The notes beneath the pieces are model-generated. The model was not told the DNA's origin and searched no databases. It worked only from the letters and a program-made list of their open reading frames with translations. A stretch of 32,680 nt of DNA, from the NCBI GenBank assembly GCA_038065195.1, contig JBBTRL010000042.1, positions 17,735 to 50,414 on the forward strand, written 5' to 3'. A program made the translations under genes and the position numbers. This DNA comes from Patescibacteria group bacterium (lineage in GTDB: Bacteria; Patescibacteriota; Minisyncoccia; GWA2-38-13b). The first letter of the stretch is position 1; each line of letters begins with the position of its first letter. Of this stretch, positions 1,862-29,396 are shown one piece after another.

Positions 1862-1870
1862 TGCTATAAT
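1862..1870 (+). promoter_or_regulatory. Extended -10 box, probably a leaderless promoter for dnaE
   Basis: TGCTATAAT lies 6 nt before ATG 1877, the inferred pre-insertion start. Confidence 0.6.
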
Positions 1871-1881
1871 TGGACTATGAA

Positions 1882-2011
1882 CCCCGTTAGAAATCTGATG
1901 ATTTTGTTTAATTATTATTAAAAAGCAATATGCTTAAAGATTCGTTTCAACAATCCAATAACGAGCAAAAAATTTCGGAAGAAAATTTTTTGCCCAAGAT
2001 TTCTAACGGGG
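1882..2011 (+). mobile_element. MITE-like start-codon element (family A), copy 1, at the dnaE start
   Basis: 15-bp perfect TIR CCCCGTTAGAAATCT/AGATTTCTAACGGGG; flanks ATGAA|...|TAAA; internal hairpin GCAAAAAATTT..AAATTTTTTGC; homologous to copy 4. Confidence 0.9.
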
Positions 2012-5000
2012 TAAATTTTACTCACCTCCATGTCCATAGTCATTTCTCGCTCCTTGACGGTCTCGCTAAAATAGACGAACTCTTGGATCGCGTCAAAGAG
2101 TTAGGAATGGATTCGGTGGCCCTTACCGATCACGGCGTAATGTATGGCGCGATTGAATTTTACAAAAAAGCGAAAGCGCGCGGAATAAAACCGATTATCG
2201 GAATAGAACTATATATTGCCCCGAATGGAATGTTGAATAAACGCCCAAAAATTGACGACAAAAGATATCATATAATACTTTTAGCCAAAAATAATATCGG
2301 ATATAAAAATCTCATTAAACTTACAACCCTTGCTCATCTGGAGGGTTTTTATTATAAACCGCGAATTGACAAAGAATTATTAAAAAAATATTCGGAAGGA
2401 TTGATAGGCGCAAGCGCCTGCGTTTCCGGAGAAATATCACGGCTCGCCATCGCCGGAAAATACGATGAAGCGGAAAAAGCCGCGCTTGAATACGAAAATA
2501 TTTTCGGCAAGGGAAATTTCTATCTTGAAATCGGATACCACCCAAACATACCGGAACAAAAAATAGCTAACGAAGCTTTAATTAAAATTGGCAAAAAAAA
2601 TAATATCGGAATTATAGCAACAAACGATATGCATTATTTAAAAAAGGAAGACGCTGAAGCGCAAGATATTTTATTGGCCATCCAAACGAAAAGTTTAATC
2701 AGCGATACCGACCGTCTAACGATGAAAGACGAAGATTTTTCAATGAAATCGCCGGAAGAAATGGCGAAAAACTTCGAAGATATTCCCGAAGCGCTGGAAA
2801 ACACGCAAAAAATAGCGGATTCGTGCGATCTGGAAATAGAACTTGGAAAAACTCAACTTCCCCACTTTGAAGTTCCCAATGGAAAAACCACTGACGAATA
2901 TCTCAAACAGTTATGCGCGGAAGGAATGGAAAAAAAATACGGGATAATAACCGATATTATTGCCCAACGATTAGAATACGAACTCTTGGTCATCAAGCAA
3001 ACTGGCTTCGCTTCTTATATTCTTATTGTATGGGATTTTGTCTCTTGGGCGAAAAACAATAATATAATTGTCGGACCGGGTCGCGGATCGGCTGCGGGCA
3101 GCATAGTTTCTTATTTATTGAATATTACCGCGATTGACCCGCTAAAATACAATCTGCTTTTTGAAAGATTCTTAAATCCGGAAAGAATCAGTATGCCAGA
3201 TATTGATTTAGATTTTGCCGATACCGGAAGAGACAAAGTTATAGAATATGTTTCTAAAAAATACGGCAAAGATCATGTGGCGCAAATTATCACCTTCGGG
3301 ACTATGGCGGCAAAAGCCGCGGTGCGCGATACGGGCAGAGTTTTAGGCTACCCATATGCTTTCTGCGATCAAACCGCGAAAATGATTCCAATGTTTATGT
3401 CTTTGGAGGAAGCGTTGAACAATGTTCCGGAGCTTAAACAAGCGTATAATTCAAATCCAGACACCAAGAAACTGATTGATTCGGCAAGAAAATTGGAAGG
3501 AGTGGCGCGCCATGCCTCAACGCATGCCTGCGGTGTTGTAATTACCAAAGAAAAATTAGAAAACTACGCTCCGCTTCAACGCGCTCCGCAAAACGAAAAC
3601 AGCGTTATCACGCAATACGAAATGCATGCCATAGAAGACTTGGGATTGCTTAAAATGGATTTTTTAGGACTTAAAAATCTGACTATAATTGAAACGGCGA
3701 TACAGATCATTAAAAATACTAAAAATGAAACTATTGATTTCAATACTATTCCATTGGATGACCAAAAAACATTTGAACTTTTTCAAAAAGGAAACACTAC
3801 CGGAATCTTCCAATACGAATCCGGCGGAATGAAAAGAAATTTACGCGCGCTAAAACCGACTGTATTTGAAGATCTGATAGCTATGAACGCTCTCTATCGT
3901 CCCGGACCGATGGAACACATCCCTGAATACATTGACGCCAAACACGGACGAAAAAAAATAAACTACTTGCATCCTAAAATGAAACCGATTCTTGAAAATA
4001 CTTACGGAGTCATAGTTTACCAAGAGCAAGTTTTGGAAATCGTCAAACAACTCGCCGGATTCAGCTATGGAGAGGCGGATGTATTAAGAAAAGCGGTGGG
4101 CAAAAAAATAAAATCCCTACTGGAAGAACAGAAAAATAAACTCATAGAAAAATTGACGAAAAACGGTATTGGCAATGAACTGACGGAAAAAATATGGAAC
4201 TTCATTGAACCATTCGCTCGTTATGGTTTTAATAAATCGCACAGCGCCTGCTATGCCACAATCGGCTATCAAACCGCTTATTTAAAAACGAATTACCCGA
4301 CGGAATTTATGGCGGCGCTGATGAATTCCGAACAAAATGATATTGAAAGAATTGCGGAAATTATCAAAGAATGCAATGATATGGACATAGAAGTATTACC
4401 GCCAAATATCAATGAAAGTTTTTCCAATTTTACCGTAGTAAACCAGAAACAAATAAGATTCGGGCTGGCTGCCGTTAAAAATGTCGGTGAAAATGTAGTG
4501 GCGGCTATCATCGCCGAACGCAAAGAAAATGGAAAATATAATAAAATTGAAGAATTTATAACACGGGTGCAATCAAAAGACCTTAATAAAAAATCTCTTG
4601 AATCGCTCGTCAAATGCGGCGCGACAGAAGAACTTGGCGAAAGAAAAAAACTGCTGGCAAATATTGAAGATCTTTTAAAATTAGCTCGAGATTTTCAAAA
4701 ATCCAAAGAACAGGGTCAATTCAGTCTGTTTGAAAATGCGCCATGCCTATCGGCAGGCAGGCAAAATAAAAATACTCTGCCCCCCATTCGCCTTAAAGAA
4801 AGTTTAGCCGCGACTAAAAACGAACGGCTCCAGTGGGAAAAAGAATTGCTGGGTCTTTATATATCGGAACATCCATTAAAAGAATTTAAAAATCAACTTG
4901 AAGCTCTTGATTCCATAAAAGAAATTCGATCAAAAACAGACGGAAATATAATATGCGGAGGCATTATAAATAAAATTAAAAAAATTCTTACGCGCCAAAA

Positions 5001-5445
5001 TCAAACAATGCTTTTTGTGGAAATGGAAGACCTTACCGGTCAAATAGAAATAATCGTATTCCCCCGCACCCTGGAATCCAATCCGCTTATTTGGCAAAAT
5101 GATAAAATGATTGTTGTTGAAGGCGCGATGAATAATAAAGACGGAGTACCAAAAATAATAGCCAATAAAACATACTTCTTGGAAGAATATTTAAAAAATG
5201 CCGCTAAAAAACCGGCTATCAAGCATTTGCAAATTAATCTGCAGAAAAATTCCGGAAATCGCTTAATGCAAGATTTGCAAAAAATATTCTCGGAGTTTCC
5301 TGCAGGTTCTACGCAAATATCAATTTCTATTCCTAACGACGGACCGAAACCAAATACCATTGAAACTCCTTATAAAATAAAATATGATGAAAGTATAATA
5401 ACAAAACTTAAACAAATGGGAATAAACGAAATACAAATAATTTAA
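1930..5445 (+). CDS. dnaE: DNA polymerase III alpha subunit (first 27-28 aa are element-derived)
   Basis: PHP motif FTHLHVHSHFSLLDG, plus GPGRGSAAGS, ERISMPDIDLDF, LLKMDFLGL, YGFNKSHS. Confidence 0.98.
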   Translation: MLKDSFQQSNNEQKISEENFLPKISNGVNFTHLHVHSHFSLLDGLAKIDELLDRVKELGMDSVALTDHGVMYGAIEFYKKAKARGIKPIIGIELYIAPNGMLNKRPKIDDKRYHIILLAKNNIGYKNLIKLTTLAHLEGFYYKPRIDKELLKKYSEGLIGASACVSGEISRLAIAGKYDEAEKAALEYENIFGKGNFYLEIGYHPNIPEQKIANEALIKIGKKNNIGIIATNDMHYLKKEDAEAQDILLAIQTKSLISDTDRLTMKDEDFSMKSPEEMAKNFEDIPEALENTQKIADSCDLEIELGKTQLPHFEVPNGKTTDEYLKQLCAEGMEKKYGIITDIIAQRLEYELLVIKQTGFASYILIVWDFVSWAKNNNIIVGPGRGSAAGSIVSYLLNITAIDPLKYNLLFERFLNPERISMPDIDLDFADTGRDKVIEYVSKKYGKDHVAQIITFGTMAAKAAVRDTGRVLGYPYAFCDQTAKMIPMFMSLEEALNNVPELKQAYNSNPDTKKLIDSARKLEGVARHASTHACGVVITKEKLENYAPLQRAPQNENSVITQYEMHAIEDLGLLKMDFLGLKNLTIIETAIQIIKNTKNETIDFNTIPLDDQKTFELFQKGNTTGIFQYESGGMKRNLRALKPTVFEDLIAMNALYRPGPMEHIPEYIDAKHGRKKINYLHPKMKPILENTYGVIVYQEQVLEIVKQLAGFSYGEADVLRKAVGKKIKSLLEEQKNKLIEKLTKNGIGNELTEKIWNFIEPFARYGFNKSHSACYATIGYQTAYLKTNYPTEFMAALMNSEQNDIERIAEIIKECNDMDIEVLPPNINESFSNFTVVNQKQIRFGLAAVKNVGENVVAAIIAERKENGKYNKIEEFITRVQSKDLNKKSLESLVKCGATEELGERKKLLANIEDLLKLARDFQKSKEQGQFSLFENAPCLSAGRQNKNTLPPIRLKESLAATKNERLQWEKELLGLYISEHPLKEFKNQLEALDSIKEIRSKTDGNIICGGIINKIKKILTRQNQTMLFVEMEDLTGQIEIIVFPRTLESNPLIWQNDKMIVVEGAMNNKDGVPKIIANKTYFLEEYLKNAAKKPAIKHLQINLQKNSGNRLMQDLQKIFSEFPAGSTQISISIPNDGPKPNTIETPYKIKYDESIITKLKQMGINEIQII
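4740..4762 (+). repeat. Short imperfect GC-rich palindrome (family D), in frame in the dnaE linker, encoding PCLSAGRQ
   Basis: GCCATGCCTATCGGCAGGCAGGC; 17/19 match to intergenic GCCATACCTACCGGCAGGC at 10114-10132. Confidence 0.65.
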
Positions 5446-10224: not shown

Positions 10225-10319
10225 CCCCGTTAGATATCTTCCGTCGTTTTATACACAAAATATCCTAACAGGAAATAATCAAGCAAATATGCGAAAATCA
10301 TCAAAAATATCTAACGGGG
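10225..10319 (+). mobile_element. Family A start-codon element, copy 2, at the miaB start
   Basis: 13-bp TIR CCCCGTTAGATAT/ATATCTAACGGGG; flanks ATAAA|...|TGAA; GTG rebuilt at 10319. Confidence 0.9.
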
Positions 10320-11683: not shown

Positions 11684-13169
11684 GTAAATCTGCCGCTATT
11701 TGCGGATTCGCCTTGCCTTTTGTTTCTCGCATAACTTGACCAATTAAAAACTGCAATGATGCCCCTTGTTTTTTTTTATAATCCTCTACGGCCTTGAAAT
11801 TATTTTTAATAACGGTTTTTACAATCTCCGTTAACGCTTCAATATCGCTTTCTTGCCCCATTCCCCTTTCTTCAATAATTTGCGACGGGTCATTGCCGGT
11901 TTTTACCATTTCGCGCAAAACCTCCTGCGCTCCGGACGACGAAATATCGCCTTTATGCGTTAAAATTATCAATTCCGCAAAATTTTCCGGACTGATTTTT
12001 ATTTCGCCATAATCCTCTATTCCGAATTCTCGCGCTAATTTCTGCAATTCCGTAATCAAATAATTCGCGGAAAGTTTTATAAGCCGCGCCGTATGTTCGC
12101 TTAAATTTTCTATTCTTACTTTATGCGCGTTTTTATCCCACGCCTGAATTTCCGAAATTACCTGCTCAAAATAATCACCCAATTCTTTATTAACAACGAA
12201 TATCTCAATATTTTCTTCCGGCAAACCATATTCTAACGCAAATCTTTTCCGTCTTTTTTGCGGCAATTCCGGTAAATTTGAGATTCGAGATTTGTCAGCC
12301 CGAGGCTGATCCGCCTTGGGCGGAAGATTTGAAATTTTCGATAATGGAATATCCGGTTCCGGAAAATACCGATAATCTTTCGCTGTTTCTTTTGCCCGCT
12401 GGGAAAATGTTTTTTGCTTATCCGCGTCCCAACCGCGCGTTTCCTGCGCAATTTTTTCGCCTTTTTCTAAAATTTCCGCCTGCCGTTCAATTTCGTAATC
12501 AATGGATTTTTCTACCGCCTTAAAAGAATTTAAGTTTTTAATTTCCGCTTTTGTTCCCAATTTCTTGTTTTTTGATAAAGAAATATTCACTTCGCACCTC
12601 ATTTGCCCTTTCTCCATATCAGCATCAGAAATTCCCAAATATCGAAAAATTAATTGAATTTCTTCGCAAAATTTTTTCGCTTCCGCGCCGGAAGAAATAT
12701 CCGGTTCGGTTACAAGCTCCATTAACGGCGCGCCAGCGCGATTAAAATCAACCAAACTATAATCTACGTTCTGCGGATGATAAAGCCGACCGGTATCTTC
12801 TTCTATGTGTATTTCCTTGATGCGAATTTTTTTACCGCCTATTTCAAAAAATCCGTTTTGGCACAACGGTTTCCAAAATTGTGAAATCTGGTATCCTTTT
12901 GGCAAATCGGGATAAAAATAATTTTTTCTGTCAAACTGAATAATTTCCGCCATTTCGCAGTTCAAAGATTTTCCGGTCAAAATAACCGATTCAACGGCTT
13001 TTTTATTCGGAACAGGTAATGTGCCCGGATGCCCCATACAAATAGGACAAACATTAATATTGGGATGCTTTTCGTCGGAATCATTCAAACACGCGCAAAA
13101 CATCTTGGTTTTTGTTTTTAATTCCGCATGTATTTCCAAACCGATTGTTGACTTAAATTTATTTAACAT
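11664..13169 (-). CDS. gatB: Asp-tRNA(Asn)/Glu-tRNA(Gln) amidotransferase subunit B
   Basis: IGLEIHAEL, CPICMGHPGTLP, FDRKNYFYPDLPKGYQISQ, DYRYFPEPD; likely start ATG 13169. Confidence 0.98.
   Translation of the reverse strand: MLNKFKSTIGLEIHAELKTKTKMFCACLNDSDEKHPNINVCPICMGHPGTLPVPNKKAVESVILTGKSLNCEMAEIIQFDRKNYFYPDLPKGYQISQFWKPLCQNGFFEIGGKKIRIKEIHIEEDTGRLYHPQNVDYSLVDFNRAGAPLMELVTEPDISSGAEAKKFCEEIQLIFRYLGISDADMEKGQMRCEVNISLSKNKKLGTKAEIKNLNSFKAVEKSIDYEIERQAEILEKGEKIAQETRGWDADKQKTFSQRAKETAKDYRYFPEPDIPLSKISNLPPKADQPRADKSRISNLPELPQKRRKRFALEYGLPEENIEIFVVNKELGDYFEQVISEIQAWDKNAHKVRIENLSEHTARLIKLSANYLITELQKLAREFGIEDYGEIKISPENFAELIILTHKGDISSSGAQEVLREMVKTGNDPSQIIEERGMGQESDIEALTEIVKTVIKNNFKAVEDYKKKQGASLQFLIGQVMRETKGKANPQIAADLLKEIIG
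12295..12324 (-). repeat. 30-bp double-hairpin element (family B), in frame in gatB (PPKADQPRAD)
   Basis: TCCGCC-CAA-GGCGGA TCAGCC-TCG-GGCTGA, two perfect 6-bp stems, nested in degenerate AAATCTC-like heptamers. Confidence 0.9.
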
Positions 13170-13180
13170 ATTTGGTATAT

Positions 13181-13744
13181 TTAAAACAATACGGAACTGC
13201 AAGTATCAAGCTCGCGGTTTACCAATTTATCCGCTTGTTTATTCCCATCGCGTAAAATATGACGAAAAACAATCAGCGAAAAATCAATTTTTAAATTCCA
13301 GAGTTGCAAAAACAAACTCTGGATTTTTTTATCCAAAACTTTGTATTTTCCGGTAATCTGCTTGAATAAAAGTTCGGAATCAACTAAAACTTCCACTTCC
13401 CTATTCTTAACGCCGACTTTCCCCAAAAGCGCTTTTGTCTTTTTTAAAGCGAAAATCACGGCTTCATACTCCGCTTCATTGTTGGTCTTTTCACCCAAAT
13501 ACTGCGAATATTCTTTAATATTTCCATTATATTCAATTACAACTCCCGAAGCCGACGGTCCGGGATTTCCACGCGATCCGCCGTCGCAATGGATAATCAC
13601 TCTATTCACCCCGTTAGAAGTCTGTTTTACCCGATTATTATGATTTACTTCAGACATAATTCGTTTTTTTTGTACATTCCCCGTTAATCTAATGCGGAAA
13701 AAATTGTTAAATTTTTTCCGCCAAGGACTTCTAACGGGGCTCAT
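13181..13744 (-). CDS. rnhA: Ribonuclease HI (core begins at GTG 13609; the upstream 45 codons are element-derived)
   Basis: CDGGSRGNPGPSASG, TNNEAEYEA, DSELL, NKQADKLVN. Confidence 0.92.
   Translation of the reverse strand: MSPVRSPWRKKFNNFFRIRLTGNVQKKRIMSEVNHNNRVKQTSNGVNRVIIHCDGGSRGNPGPSASGVVIEYNGNIKEYSQYLGEKTNNEAEYEAVIFALKKTKALLGKVGVKNREVEVLVDSELLFKQITGKYKVLDKKIQSLFLQLWNLKIDFSLIVFRHILRDGNKQADKLVNRELDTCSSVLF
13609..13739. mobile_element. Family A start-codon element, copy 3, at the rnhA start (in frame; appears inverted relative to copies 1 and 4)
   Basis: 14-bp TIR CCCCGTTAGAAGTC/GACTTCTAACGGGG; gene-strand flanks ATGAG|...|TGAA; internal hairpin GCGGAAAAAATT-GTTA-AATTTTTTCCGC. Confidence 0.9.
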
Positions 13745-15485: not shown

Positions 15486-16715
15486 TTATTTAAGCGCTTC
15501 AATCCCCGGTAATTTATTTTCCGCCAAATATTCCAGCATAGCGCCGCCACCCGTAGAAATATAAGAAAATTTATCCAAAATACCCATTTTACTGATCGCA
15601 GCAATGGTATCTCCGCCACCTACTATTGAATAAGCGCCCGATTTGCTTATGGCCCCGGCTATAGCTTTTGTTCCGTTTGAAAATATTTCCATATCGGCGC
15701 GTCCCATCGGACCATTCCAAATAATTGTTTTGGATTCTCTGATTAAGGAACAAAACAAATCCACGCTTCGCCCTCCTATATCTAAAATAATATCGTCCCT
15801 TGAAACACTGCCAATCTGCACGGCTGTCGCGCCACTGGCTCCGTCTAAATCTTTAGACACGACGACATCAACCGGAACCGTAAATTTTATATTCGCCACT
15901 TTCATTTTTTTAATCGCCGGAATAACTTCTGGACTGATTATTGAACGACCAACTTCTTCGCCTTTAACCGATAAAATGGTATTTGCCACAACGCCGCCCA
16001 GTATTATAAAATCCGCTTTCGGTAAGAAATTACCAATTACTCTAACTTTTGTTTCGGCTTTTAAACCGCCAATTATTACAGTTACCGGATGCGCGGGATT
16101 TTTAAGCGCTTTATCCAAAATATCAATTTCTTTTGCCAAAGATAAACCAACGAAAGAAGGTAAAAATTCAGTTATCGCCTCAACCGAAGCGTGCGCCCTA
16201 TGGCATACGCTAAAAGCATCATTCACAAAAATATCGGCAAATGACGCTAATTTTTCGGCAAATTTTTTATTATTATTTTCTTCTTCTTTATAAAAACGGA
16301 TATTCTCCAAAAGACAAATTTTATCGCAATTAATATTTTTTAATTCGCGTATATCGTCTTCGATGAAATTAATTTTTTCTCCGATAATATCTTCTAAATG
16401 ACCTATTAAAGGCTTTAAACTATAAGCTTTATGCCATTCACCATTAGGTCTGCCGAGATGCGAAACTAAAATAATTTTATTGCCATCTTTCAGAAGAAAT
16501 TTTATTGTTGGCAATGCTGATTTAACGCGATAATCTTCATCGCTCAAAACTTTGCCATCTGCCGTAGGCAGATTAAAATCAACCCGCAAAAGAACGGTTT
16601 TATTTTTAATTTTACTGTTTTTTAGTAATTTCACCCCGATAGAAGTCCTTGGTAAAAAATTTCCTTCCGAATTTTTTTGTTTGCCATTAAGTTGTTGAAA
16701 TGAATTCTTGAGCAT
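15486..16715 (-). CDS. pgk: Phosphoglycerate kinase (start ATG 16715 or GTG 16634)
   Basis: LRVDFNLP, SHLGRP, LLENIRF, NDAFSVCHRAHAS, WNGPMG, GGGDT, STGGGAMLE. Confidence 0.97.
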   Translation of the reverse strand: MLKNSFQQLNGKQKNSEGNFLPRTSIGVKLLKNSKIKNKTVLLRVDFNLPTADGKVLSDEDYRVKSALPTIKFLLKDGNKIILVSHLGRPNGEWHKAYSLKPLIGHLEDIIGEKINFIEDDIRELKNINCDKICLLENIRFYKEEENNNKKFAEKLASFADIFVNDAFSVCHRAHASVEAITEFLPSFVGLSLAKEIDILDKALKNPAHPVTVIIGGLKAETKVRVIGNFLPKADFIILGGVVANTILSVKGEEVGRSIISPEVIPAIKKMKVANIKFTVPVDVVVSKDLDGASGATAVQIGSVSRDDIILDIGGRSVDLFCSLIRESKTIIWNGPMGRADMEIFSNGTKAIAGAISKSGAYSIVGGGDTIAAISKMGILDKFSYISTGGGAMLEYLAENKLPGIEALK

Positions 16716-16763
16716 ATTGCTTTTAATAATAATTAAATTAAAATCATTGGACTTCTAGCGAAG
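16634..16763 (-). mobile_element. Family A start-codon element, copy 4 (degenerate TIR), at the pgk start
   Basis: CTTCGCTAGAAGTCC...GGACTTCTATCGGGG; 130 bp like copy 1 and alignable throughout; flanks ATAAA|...|TGAA. Confidence 0.88.
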
Positions 16764-16774
16764 TTTATATTTTA

Positions 16775-16783
16775 ATTTTACCA
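16775..16783 (-). promoter_or_regulatory. Extended -10 box for pgk
   Basis: TGGTAAAAT lies 6 nt before the inferred ancestral start position (ATA at 16768). Confidence 0.5.
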
Positions 16784-29010: not shown

Positions 29011-29328
29011 TTATATATTTTCTTTTTTTTTATTATTAATTAATTGTTTTACAATCCACCTTTTTTCTTTTGACAATGGCCTACACTCTTCAATTACAAC
29101 CCGATCTCCAATCTTATATTCATTTCCTTCGTCATGAGCTTTAAAATTCTTACTGACAGTAAAATACTTATGATAACGAGAATGCTTTTTAAGAACATCT
29201 ATTCTAACCACTATAGTCTTGTCCATTTTATCGGATACCACGATGCCCTTAAGCCGCCTTTTTTTTATTACATTATCGGTGTTTTTTATATCCACCCCGT
29301 TAGAAATTTTTTGCCCTTGTGATTCCAT
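29011..29328 (-). CDS. rpsQ: 30S ribosomal protein S17 (start ATG 29328 or GTG 29295)
   Basis: [30 protein letters not shown]. Confidence 0.96.
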
Positions 29329-29396
29329 AAAATTCTTTACTTAATTCAATATTATTATATTTTCCCGCAAAATCAATAATAAGATTTCTAACGGGG
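29295..29396 (-). mobile_element. Family A start-codon element, copy 5, at the rpsQ start
   Basis: 13-bp TIR CCCCGTTAGAAAT/ATTTCTAACGGGG; perfect flanking duplication ATGGA|...|TGGA. Confidence 0.92.

Follow-up and report, generated by a model that had tools for sequence, protein, structure and literature searches.

Where does synthesis of a bacterium's replicative DNA polymerase begin if a mobile element sits in the start codon of its gene? This question is raised by the dnaE gene in a stretch of 32,680 nucleotides (nt) from a Patescibacteria group bacterium (GenBank assembly GCA_038065195.1, contig JBBTRL010000042.1, positions 17,735 to 50,414). We will call this whole stretch the window, and coordinates without a contig name refer to it. 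At positions 1882-2011, a 130-nt element that resembles MITEs (miniature inverted-repeat transposable elements) separates the ancestral ATG of dnaE from the first conserved motif of the protein. An earlier examination of the DNA alone, which we will call the sequence-only reading, had proposed that the polymerase must now be initiated inside the element. We found that the site is empty in a relative and that the GTG start codon that such insertions leave at the junction is GTA in this copy. DnaE is probably made from an ATG that the element supplies.

An element inserted at the start of dnaE

The window belongs to a genome (G000) of 808,814 bases in 102 contigs, with 36.7% G+C; the assembly is 94% complete. 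Our comparison genome from the same genus (G001) encodes a DnaE that is 91-92% identical to that of G000. The features around the start of dnaE are:

1862..1870, + strand: TGCTATAAT, an extended -10 box from the ancestral promoter of dnaE; ATG 1877 follows after 6 nt, a leaderless-type distance
1877..1921, + strand: ancestral dnaE ATG, heading a 14-codon upstream open reading frame (uORF), MNPVRNLMILFNYY; stop codon TAA at 1919-1921; out of the dnaE frame
1878..1881, + strand: left copy of the target-site duplication, TGAA
1882..2011, + strand: MITE-like element, 130 nt, with inverted ends at 1882-1895 and 1998-2011
1930..5445, + strand: dnaE open reading frame (ORF) from the element-borne ATG, 1171 amino acids (aa), with residues 1-27 encoded by the element
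1990..1992, + strand: TTG in the dnaE frame, within the element; an alternative start, 7 codons ahead of the junction
2011..2013, + strand: junction codon GTA; it is GTG in most gene-start copies, and here it is no longer a start codon
2012..2015, + strand: right copy of the target-site duplication, TAAA (ancestral TGAA)
2017..2040, + strand: FTHLHVHS, the first conserved motif of the PHP domain of DnaE, directly after the element

The element begins with CCCCGTTAGAAATC (1882-1895) and ends with the exact reverse complement of this sequence (1998-2011), with 14 of 14 nt complementary. ATGAA adjoins the element on its 5' side and TAAAT on its 3' side, and the two copies of the target-site duplication agree at three of four positions. 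At many other copies of the element, the flanking 4-base-pair (bp) repeats are perfect (TGAA, TAAA, TTTA, CTTG, or TATG). The dnaE site of G001 is empty: it reads TGCTATAAT-tggaat-ATGAAATTCACCCACCTC (also given as ATGAAATTC), with the same -10 box at the same spacing, and its coding part, ATGAAATTCACC, encodes MKFTHLH. A metagenome locus (L164) has the same empty site. This shows that the element inserted at the start of dnaE. The distance from ATG 1877 to the junction is 134 nt, which is not a multiple of three, so this is not an in-frame insertion like those of the Rickettsia palindromic elements. The sequence-only reading was right that ATG 1877 is now out of frame and that its uORF runs to TAA 1919-1921, which leaves 8 nt (1922-1929) before ATG 1930.

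The element is short, with inverted ends, a target-site duplication, dispersed copies, and an empty site in a relative, which are the characteristics of bacterial MITEs that we tested for. It has no transposase gene; its longest internal frame is the 27-codon stretch that is fused to dnaE. The end motif has 9 matches in the window (0.23 expected), and a scan of 809 kb of G000 found 101 half-sites with at most one mismatch and 51 paired ends. Around two dozen of the copies in G000 lie exactly at gene starts and have the form A-TGAA-element-TGAA. In these start-site copies, the last G of the element and the duplicated TG form an in-frame GTG. Copies of the element differ by 14-17%. The 102-nt interior of the dnaE copy occurs three times in G000 and not at all in G001 (by BLAST), and a pattern scan of the genome contigs found no further interiors of this type, so the subfamily is known only from three copies in G000. 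As RNA, the region 1877-2040 is predicted to fold with -44.4 kcal/mol (z -6.4), with the ends of the element paired in a 16-bp closing stem.

Beyond this genus, an 11-mer from the element's end is present in 82 of 151 sampled genomes of the class, and the reversed control is near zero. These genomes cover many families and have up to 75 half-sites each, which is unusually wide and conserved for the end of a MITE. In four other families, copies with GTG at the junction mostly follow ATGAA or ATGGA and lie ahead of long ORFs. No Rfam family reaches its gathering score in the window, and matches within 1780-2080 are at chance level. No autonomous insertion-sequence partner stood out in the list of half-sites, which did not include a systematic search for end pairs 0.7-3 kb apart or for a transposase.

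Is the GTA at the junction real? Contigs from three DNA sequencing runs of two studies carry it (X1 across 1600-2400, X2 across 1600-2394, and X8 across 1600-2131), although such contigs drop rare variants, and these runs may include the window's own source. GTA, ATG 1930, TTG 1990, and the uORF are identical between the window and all three contigs. The sole difference is at position 2016, where T in the window is A in the contigs; this changes AAT (Asn) to AAA (Lys), and Lys matches G001. The T at 2016 may reflect strain variation, or else the assembly has a wrong base there. The junction codon GTA, which the sequence-only reading had pointed out, is no assembly error, and it is in frame with VNFTHLHVHS.

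The gene that follows the element is under strong purifying selection and is functional. Compared to G001 over 798 aligned codons, it has 92% identity, a synonymous divergence (dS) of 0.83, a nonsynonymous divergence (dN) of 0.042, and a dN/dS of 0.05. The ORF at 1930..5445 encodes a complete DnaE with five Pfam domains (PHP, NTPase, finger, HhH, and OB), with PHP beginning at residue 32. It is the single gene with PF07733 in the assembly and the sole C-family polymerase gene that we found.

Candidate start codons for DnaE

The dnaE frame is closed upstream by TAA at 1909-1911 and is open from 1912. Between there and the PHP motif (1912-2016), its only canonical start codons are ATG 1930 and TTG 1990, both inside the element. 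The sequence-only reading had stated that no other ordinary start is left before the motif, which directly follows the element. The position of the motif is correct, but the claim missed TTG 1990-1992, which is in frame and 7 codons before GTA. Because this TTG is also inside the element, the conclusion that the start is element-borne is unaffected.

Among relatives from the class, 27 of 28 have an in-frame DnaE ATG that is 0-6 codons before the F of FxHLH. (One more locus from the class, L025, yielded no FxHLH motif with the pattern that we used.) Similarly, 80 relatives from metagenomes have their nearest in-frame ATG at 2-4 codons (69 relatives), 6-11 codons (9), or 25 codons (2) before this F. 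Because the starts of relatives lie near FxHLH, the start of dnaE must precede position 2017. The frame and the comparison with relatives thus support the proposal that dnaE must be initiated within the element.

Additions at the extreme N-terminus of DnaE appear elsewhere. Two diverged metagenome contigs from another lineage (L211 and L232, at about 525-600) have a different MITE in frame between the MKF and FTHLH of dnaE. It has ends CCCCGCACCACTTT, a TTTA duplication, and 65+4 nt, and it adds 23 residues after codon 3. Because this in-frame insertion is kept in diverged contigs, the extreme N-terminus of DnaE tolerates additions. In both of these dnaE genes, TATAAT lies 5 nt before the ATG. 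In another relative (L010, from G038), 15 additional residues precede FTHLH at the N-terminus of DnaE. The DNA there includes GCATTAGAAATTC, similar to the end of the element, and the extension may be an old, decayed insertion.

If an element-borne ATG has taken over from the rebuilt GTG, then loss of GTG should be confined to copies that have such an ATG, and this is what we found. (All of our copy-count statistics have small samples and related copies. We left C83:2145, C91:5861, C99:11194, C19:1610, and the intergenic copies out of the start-site counts, as compound or off the first codon.) In G000, GTG is kept in all 13 of the start-site copies that have no in-frame internal start, including the nested one at a ksgA-like gene. 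An in-frame internal ATG is present in 11 copies, of which 8 have GTG and 3 have GTA (GTA 3/11 vs. 0/13, p = 0.08). The three genes with GTA are dnaE, a Mur-ligase gene, and a gene for a 413-aa protein without a Pfam match. Four loci are filled in G001 and not in G000: L032 has GTA and an internal ATG, L041 has GTG and an internal ATG, and L035 and L094 have GTG and no internal ATG. With these added to the start-site copies of G000, there are 28 independent insertions into start codons, and GTA is found in 4 of 13 with an internal ATG vs. 0 of 15 without (one-sided p = 0.035). So, the junction GTG was lost only where an in-frame internal ATG exists. L050 in G001 and C99:11194 in G000 seem at first to contradict this, as they combine GTA with a long ORF and lack an internal start; both are intergenic insertions, however, and a few codons downstream the gene has an ATG of its own.

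Other copies follow the same pattern. In 30 loci taken from five genomes of other families, there are 32 copies with GTA at the junction, of which 7 have a downstream ORF of at least 80 aa; all 7 have another in-frame start, inside the element or just past the junction. The products of G000 copies without an internal start begin at the junction where we inspected them; these include SSB-like and epimerase-like N-termini (judged by eye). We compared 44 start-site copies (G000 and four other families): 23 have an ATG open to the junction in the junction's frame, and 8 have one in the other frame that the TAA of the element's own end leaves open (p = 0.0008, which overstates the significance because copies of one subfamily are not independent).

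The other two genes with GTA in G000 have orthologues in G001, and these pairs show how the change proceeds through time. The Mur-ligase gene (ATGAA...GGGGTAAAAAACTGG) has GTA and an in-frame ATG in both genomes, and the interiors of its elements differ (129 vs. 72 nt). The two copies (L061, G000:C12:14973-15101, and L085, G001:C1:838-909) have an identical site and flanks and belong to different interior subfamilies, which suggests that recombination between copies replaced the interior, or that excision was followed by a new insertion at this site. At the 413-aa gene, the junction reads GTG in G001 but GTA in G000, and both genomes conserve the ATG 10 codons upstream. By our estimate, GTG has been lost in about a quarter of the redundant copies, which is roughly what neutral decay would give at a copy divergence of 14-17%. 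In G000, dnaE is one of three genes in this state, and it is not unique. It had been singled out as the best candidate for a domesticated copy: the element-borne start is supported, but dnaE is neither the sole nor the oldest such case, as the Mur-ligase and 413-aa genes are alike.

We propose the following history, which we consider probable. In the lineage of G000, the 130-nt non-autonomous element would have inserted behind the ATGAA at which dnaE began, with duplication of TGAA. As in most other copies, an in-frame GTG start would then have formed from the element's last G and the duplicated TG. Because this subfamily brings an ATG in the same frame, 27 codons upstream, GTG would have been redundant and free to drift to GTA. 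DnaE would now be made from ATG 1930, with 27 element-encoded residues ahead of its old N-terminus, and the only replicative polymerase gene would depend on selfish DNA for its start codon. The predicted tryptic peptides of this extension are DSFQQSNNEQK, ISEENFLPK, and ISNGVNFTHLHVHSHFSLLDGLAK, or the forms given by the AAA allele.

Alternatively, dnaE could start at TTG 1990, so that just 7 residues are element-encoded and ATG 1930 is irrelevant or gives a minor, longer isoform. It counts against ATG 1930 that this TTG is in frame and is a normal bacterial start codon. The Mur-ligase copy from the same subfamily likewise has a TTG 7 codons before the junction, and a weak purine-rich stretch (GGAAGAAAA) lies 7-15 nt upstream of TTG 1990. 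On the other hand, the GTA copies outside the subfamily (the Mur-ligase gene of G001, the 413-aa gene in both genomes, and L032) have an in-frame ATG and no TTG, and the pgk copy described below has TTA at this position. Also, there is no GGAG, GAGG, or AGGA before TTG 1990. In the predicted fold, UUG 1990 is base-paired inside a hairpin stem, and AUG 1930 is in a weak 5-bp hairpin beside A-rich single strands. We consider a start at the TTG unlikely, and ATG 1930 is most likely the present start of dnaE, judging from these comparisons.

How ribosomes might reach ATG 1930

How would ribosomes find an ATG inside a hairpin-forming element? A terminator at 1760-1793 lies upstream, so the promoter of dnaE must be between it and 1877. 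In G000, using crude starts (the first ATG of ORFs of at least 150 aa), 16 of 547 ORFs have a TGnTANNNT whose end is exactly 6 nt upstream of the first ATG; at most other spacings, the number is about 1-2. A 4-mer resembling the Shine-Dalgarno (SD) sequence is found at -17 to -4 in 94 of 545 ORFs, vs. 34 in a control interval, and 344 of 545 have neither an SD-like nor a leaderless-type signal. The conserved motif at the 3' end of 16S rRNA was not found in the assembly of G000, so the anti-SD sequence cannot be read from it. Because dnaE has a conserved extended -10 box at the genome-wide 6-nt peak and the genome is SD-poor, the old dnaE was probably leaderless, and we infer that its transcription starts at or near 1877. 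(The passages that we consulted from the literature on leaderless genes and the Candidate Phyla Radiation do not address the leaderless genes of these bacteria.)

Two routes to ATG 1930 seem about equally probable to us, and we leave a small share for others. One is a relay: a leaderless mRNA would begin at AUG 1877, the uORF would be translated to its stop at 1919-1921, and ribosomes would re-initiate 8 nt later. The other is direct initiation, independent of an SD sequence, where the mRNA ahead of AUG 1930 is A/U-rich and weakly structured. As described in the part of PMC10666635 considered here, re-initiation falls steeply with distance and is nearly gone at about 20 nt; a gap of 8 nt is close enough for coupling by that account. 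Within the dnaE subfamily, the copies with an intact uORF (dnaE and the Mur-ligase gene) have lost GTG, and the pgk copy, whose upstream ATG is now ATA, has kept it. At the Mur-ligase gene, the old ATG overlaps the stop codon of the preceding gene (TAATG), which suggests a chain of coupling. By hand count, three of five GTA copies, and none of eight GTG copies, have the uORF stop 3-8 nt ahead of the internal ATG (p = 0.035); we give this little weight, as two of the three share a subfamily and the GTA of the Mur-ligase gene predates its present interior.

Several observations count against synthesis of DnaE from ATG 1930. It lies within a domain whose closing 16-bp stem is stable and could impede a leaderless start at 1877 as well as internal binding by the 30S subunit, and there is no SD-like motif before it (no GGAG, GAGG, or AGGA in the 17 nt upstream). 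The starts of transcription and translation are inferred, and the single RNA run has a contig only across 2084-2272, which could not show a 5' end in any case. The association between GTG loss and an internal ATG comes from small numbers, and subfamily copies are not independent. Other observations bear on the relay in particular. About one copy in four, among them the pgk copy and the GTA copy at the 413-aa gene, no longer has an intact upstream ATG, and therefore the uORF is not generally required. In G001, the uORF stop of the Mur-ligase gene is about 30 nt downstream of the internal ATG. Also, given how many ORFs have neither type of signal, direct initiation seems to be the norm in G000.

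A different explanation is that the element carries a promoter which gives a leaderless mRNA that begins at or just before AUG 1930, with the old promoter and the uORF uninvolved. Leaderless-type gene starts do occur in G000, the stretch before ATG 1930 is conserved in all three copies of the subfamily, and two hexamers there resemble a -10 box (TATTAT and TATTAA, whose ends are 11 and 8 nt upstream of the ATG, respectively). But these hexamers lack the final T or are too far upstream: no TANNNT has its end 5-8 nt upstream of ATG 1930, and a TG extension is lacking. A consensus scan found no promoter-like site on the + strand within 1882-2011. This seems to us even less likely than a start at the TTG.

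It is very unlikely that DnaE starts at the junction or beyond it with a non-canonical codon such as GTA, or that ribosomes hop or shift frame from ATG 1877 over the hairpin. The AUGAA and UAAA flanks around a very stable hairpin do loosely recall the take-off and landing sites of translational bypassing, and the dnaE frame opens at 1912, just ahead of the uORF stop. However, GTA differs from ATG at two positions, is not a near-cognate codon, and makes a poor start codon; as a landing codon, it would no longer match the initiator tRNA. Neither a non-canonical start nor bypassing would lead us to expect that GTG loss is confined to copies with an internal ATG. Frameshifting from the uORF into the dnaE frame was ruled out, as there is no slippery heptamer in 1904-1921.

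Finally, an artefact (the element or its GTA as an assembly error) or a dying gene is hardly credible: the assembly is fragmented and differs from the run contigs at 2016, but contigs from two studies hold the element and GTA in one piece, and the sole C-family polymerase gene is intact in all its domains, with its low dN/dS.

Other copies, known elements, and what the dnaE copy means

A sister copy from the same subfamily as the dnaE copy lies at the start of pgk:

16627..16783, - strand: element copy at the pgk start; junction GTG kept, upstream ATG now ATA, in-frame ATG at 16715, 27 codons upstream

The pgk site is empty in G001 (TGGTAAAAT-N8-ATGAAATTG). Three more copies in the window, at 10225-10319 (+), 13609-13739 (-), and 29295-29396 (-), are also at gene starts, of MiaB-like, RNase H-like, and S17-like genes (from N-terminal motifs judged by eye). 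All three retain GTG at the junction and have an in-frame internal ATG. At the RNase H-like gene, the old ATG is in frame and the frame is open across the entire element, for a possible extension of 45 residues.

Elsewhere in G000, the copy at the start of a KsgA-like gene (L064, G000:C34:10519-10683) has a 29-nt mini-element, little beyond the two ends, nested at TAAA inside a full-size copy. One start-site copy (C99:3860-3955, within L066-L084) contains an assembly gap (a run of N), so its interior cannot be read. Most start-site copies without an internal ATG have a conserved TATATAAAG about 17 nt before the junction GTG, which may be an outward-facing -10 box. The junction GTG adjoins a 14-bp stem and has no SD sequence.

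A different repeat also lies near dnaE. A 40-nt, G+C-rich, double-hairpin motif (ttccgcccaaggcggaccaacctcgggctgg) at 1811-1849, between the upstream terminator and the dnaE promoter, recurs in inverted form at 12296-12335 (85% complementarity) and is conserved upstream of dnaE in G001. In all of the runs that we examined, many unrelated contigs add up to very high depth over this motif, which marks it as a second, widespread repeat family in these samples.

Are there precedents for the dnaE insertion? In the passages of PMC3184786 considered here, bacterial MITEs (including BOX, RUP, BRE, and Nezha) are fused to the 5' or 3' ends of genes, with uncertain significance. The dnaE element is like those in being short and non-autonomous, with inverted ends, a target duplication, many copies, and a long RNA hairpin, and in having a small ORF in frame with a chromosomal gene that lengthens its 5' end. 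Unlike the fusions described there, it inserted in the start codon itself, of the sole replicative polymerase gene, where it disabled the native start; the start that it rebuilt was lost later, so that the element's ATG is the only canonical ATG left.

Two repeats described in the same passages come closer in function. REP2 is a dispersed repeat that provides the initiation codon of a downstream gene, with an ATG in frame, but it has no inverted ends and it brings a promoter and a ribosome-binding site (PMC3184786). The dnaE element has inverted ends, and it has neither an SD-like motif before its ATG nor a promoter-like site. Mycobacterial MIRUs, as described there, have a repeat-borne mini-ORF between an upstream translation signal and a gene, so that coupling is possible; their small ORFs overlap the ends of the flanking genes within a polycistron (PMC3184786). 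MIRUs lie between the genes of operons and have imperfect inverted ends, whereas the ends of the dnaE element are perfect, and its mini-ORF is headed by the gene's own former start codon.

Ogata et al. reportedly described palindromic elements in Rickettsia protein genes in 2000. In the account in PMC3184786, as far as it is considered here, these are in-frame palindromic insertions in protein genes. As at dnaE, selfish palindromic DNA is tolerated in essential genes and is translated as an extra peptide. The Rickettsia elements are internal and in frame, whereas the copy at dnaE does not keep the frame of the old ATG and would work only via a new start.

For termination-reinitiation, the likeness is a short upstream ORF that ends 8 nt before the next start, which is in the range for coupling. 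The cases in the part of PMC10666635 considered here are native gene pairs, mostly with overlaps of 1 or 4 nt; the upstream ORF of dnaE was created by a transposon and is probably leaderless. In the literature that we searched, which was mostly outside of subscription journals, we met no account of MITEs that target start codons or take their place. The dnaE case thus appears to differ from known systems in having a start codon as the target, in the sole replicative polymerase gene, with a rebuilt start that was lost, and with such loss occurring only where the element supplies a start.

We also offer a broader reading, tentatively. Across the class, elements that seek start codons may act as a neutral ratchet: they would land at ATGAA and rebuild GTG from their own last base, and many subfamilies would bring an extra in-frame ATG, after which one start would decay and dependence would become irreversible. 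The essential genes captured in this way might include the sole replicative polymerase gene, a Mur-ligase gene, and others. And in leaderless genes, the stranded old ATG could perhaps survive as the head of a relay ORF that hands ribosomes on.

Fusions of bacterial MITEs to genes are usually listed as curiosities of unknown consequence. For dnaE, a sister genome has the empty site, the loss of the rebuilt start codon is dated, and there is an internal control (GTG is kept where there is no other start). If DnaE is made from ATG 1930, as we think it probably is, then dnaE is a concrete example of an essential gene that was captured by selfish DNA through neutral steps. For annotation, gene callers will misplace many starts around these elements in small-genome groundwater bacteria. 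And because the copies vary in the intactness of the uORF and in having GTG or GTA, they are natural constructs for the choice of start codons in SD-poor, partly leaderless bacteria.

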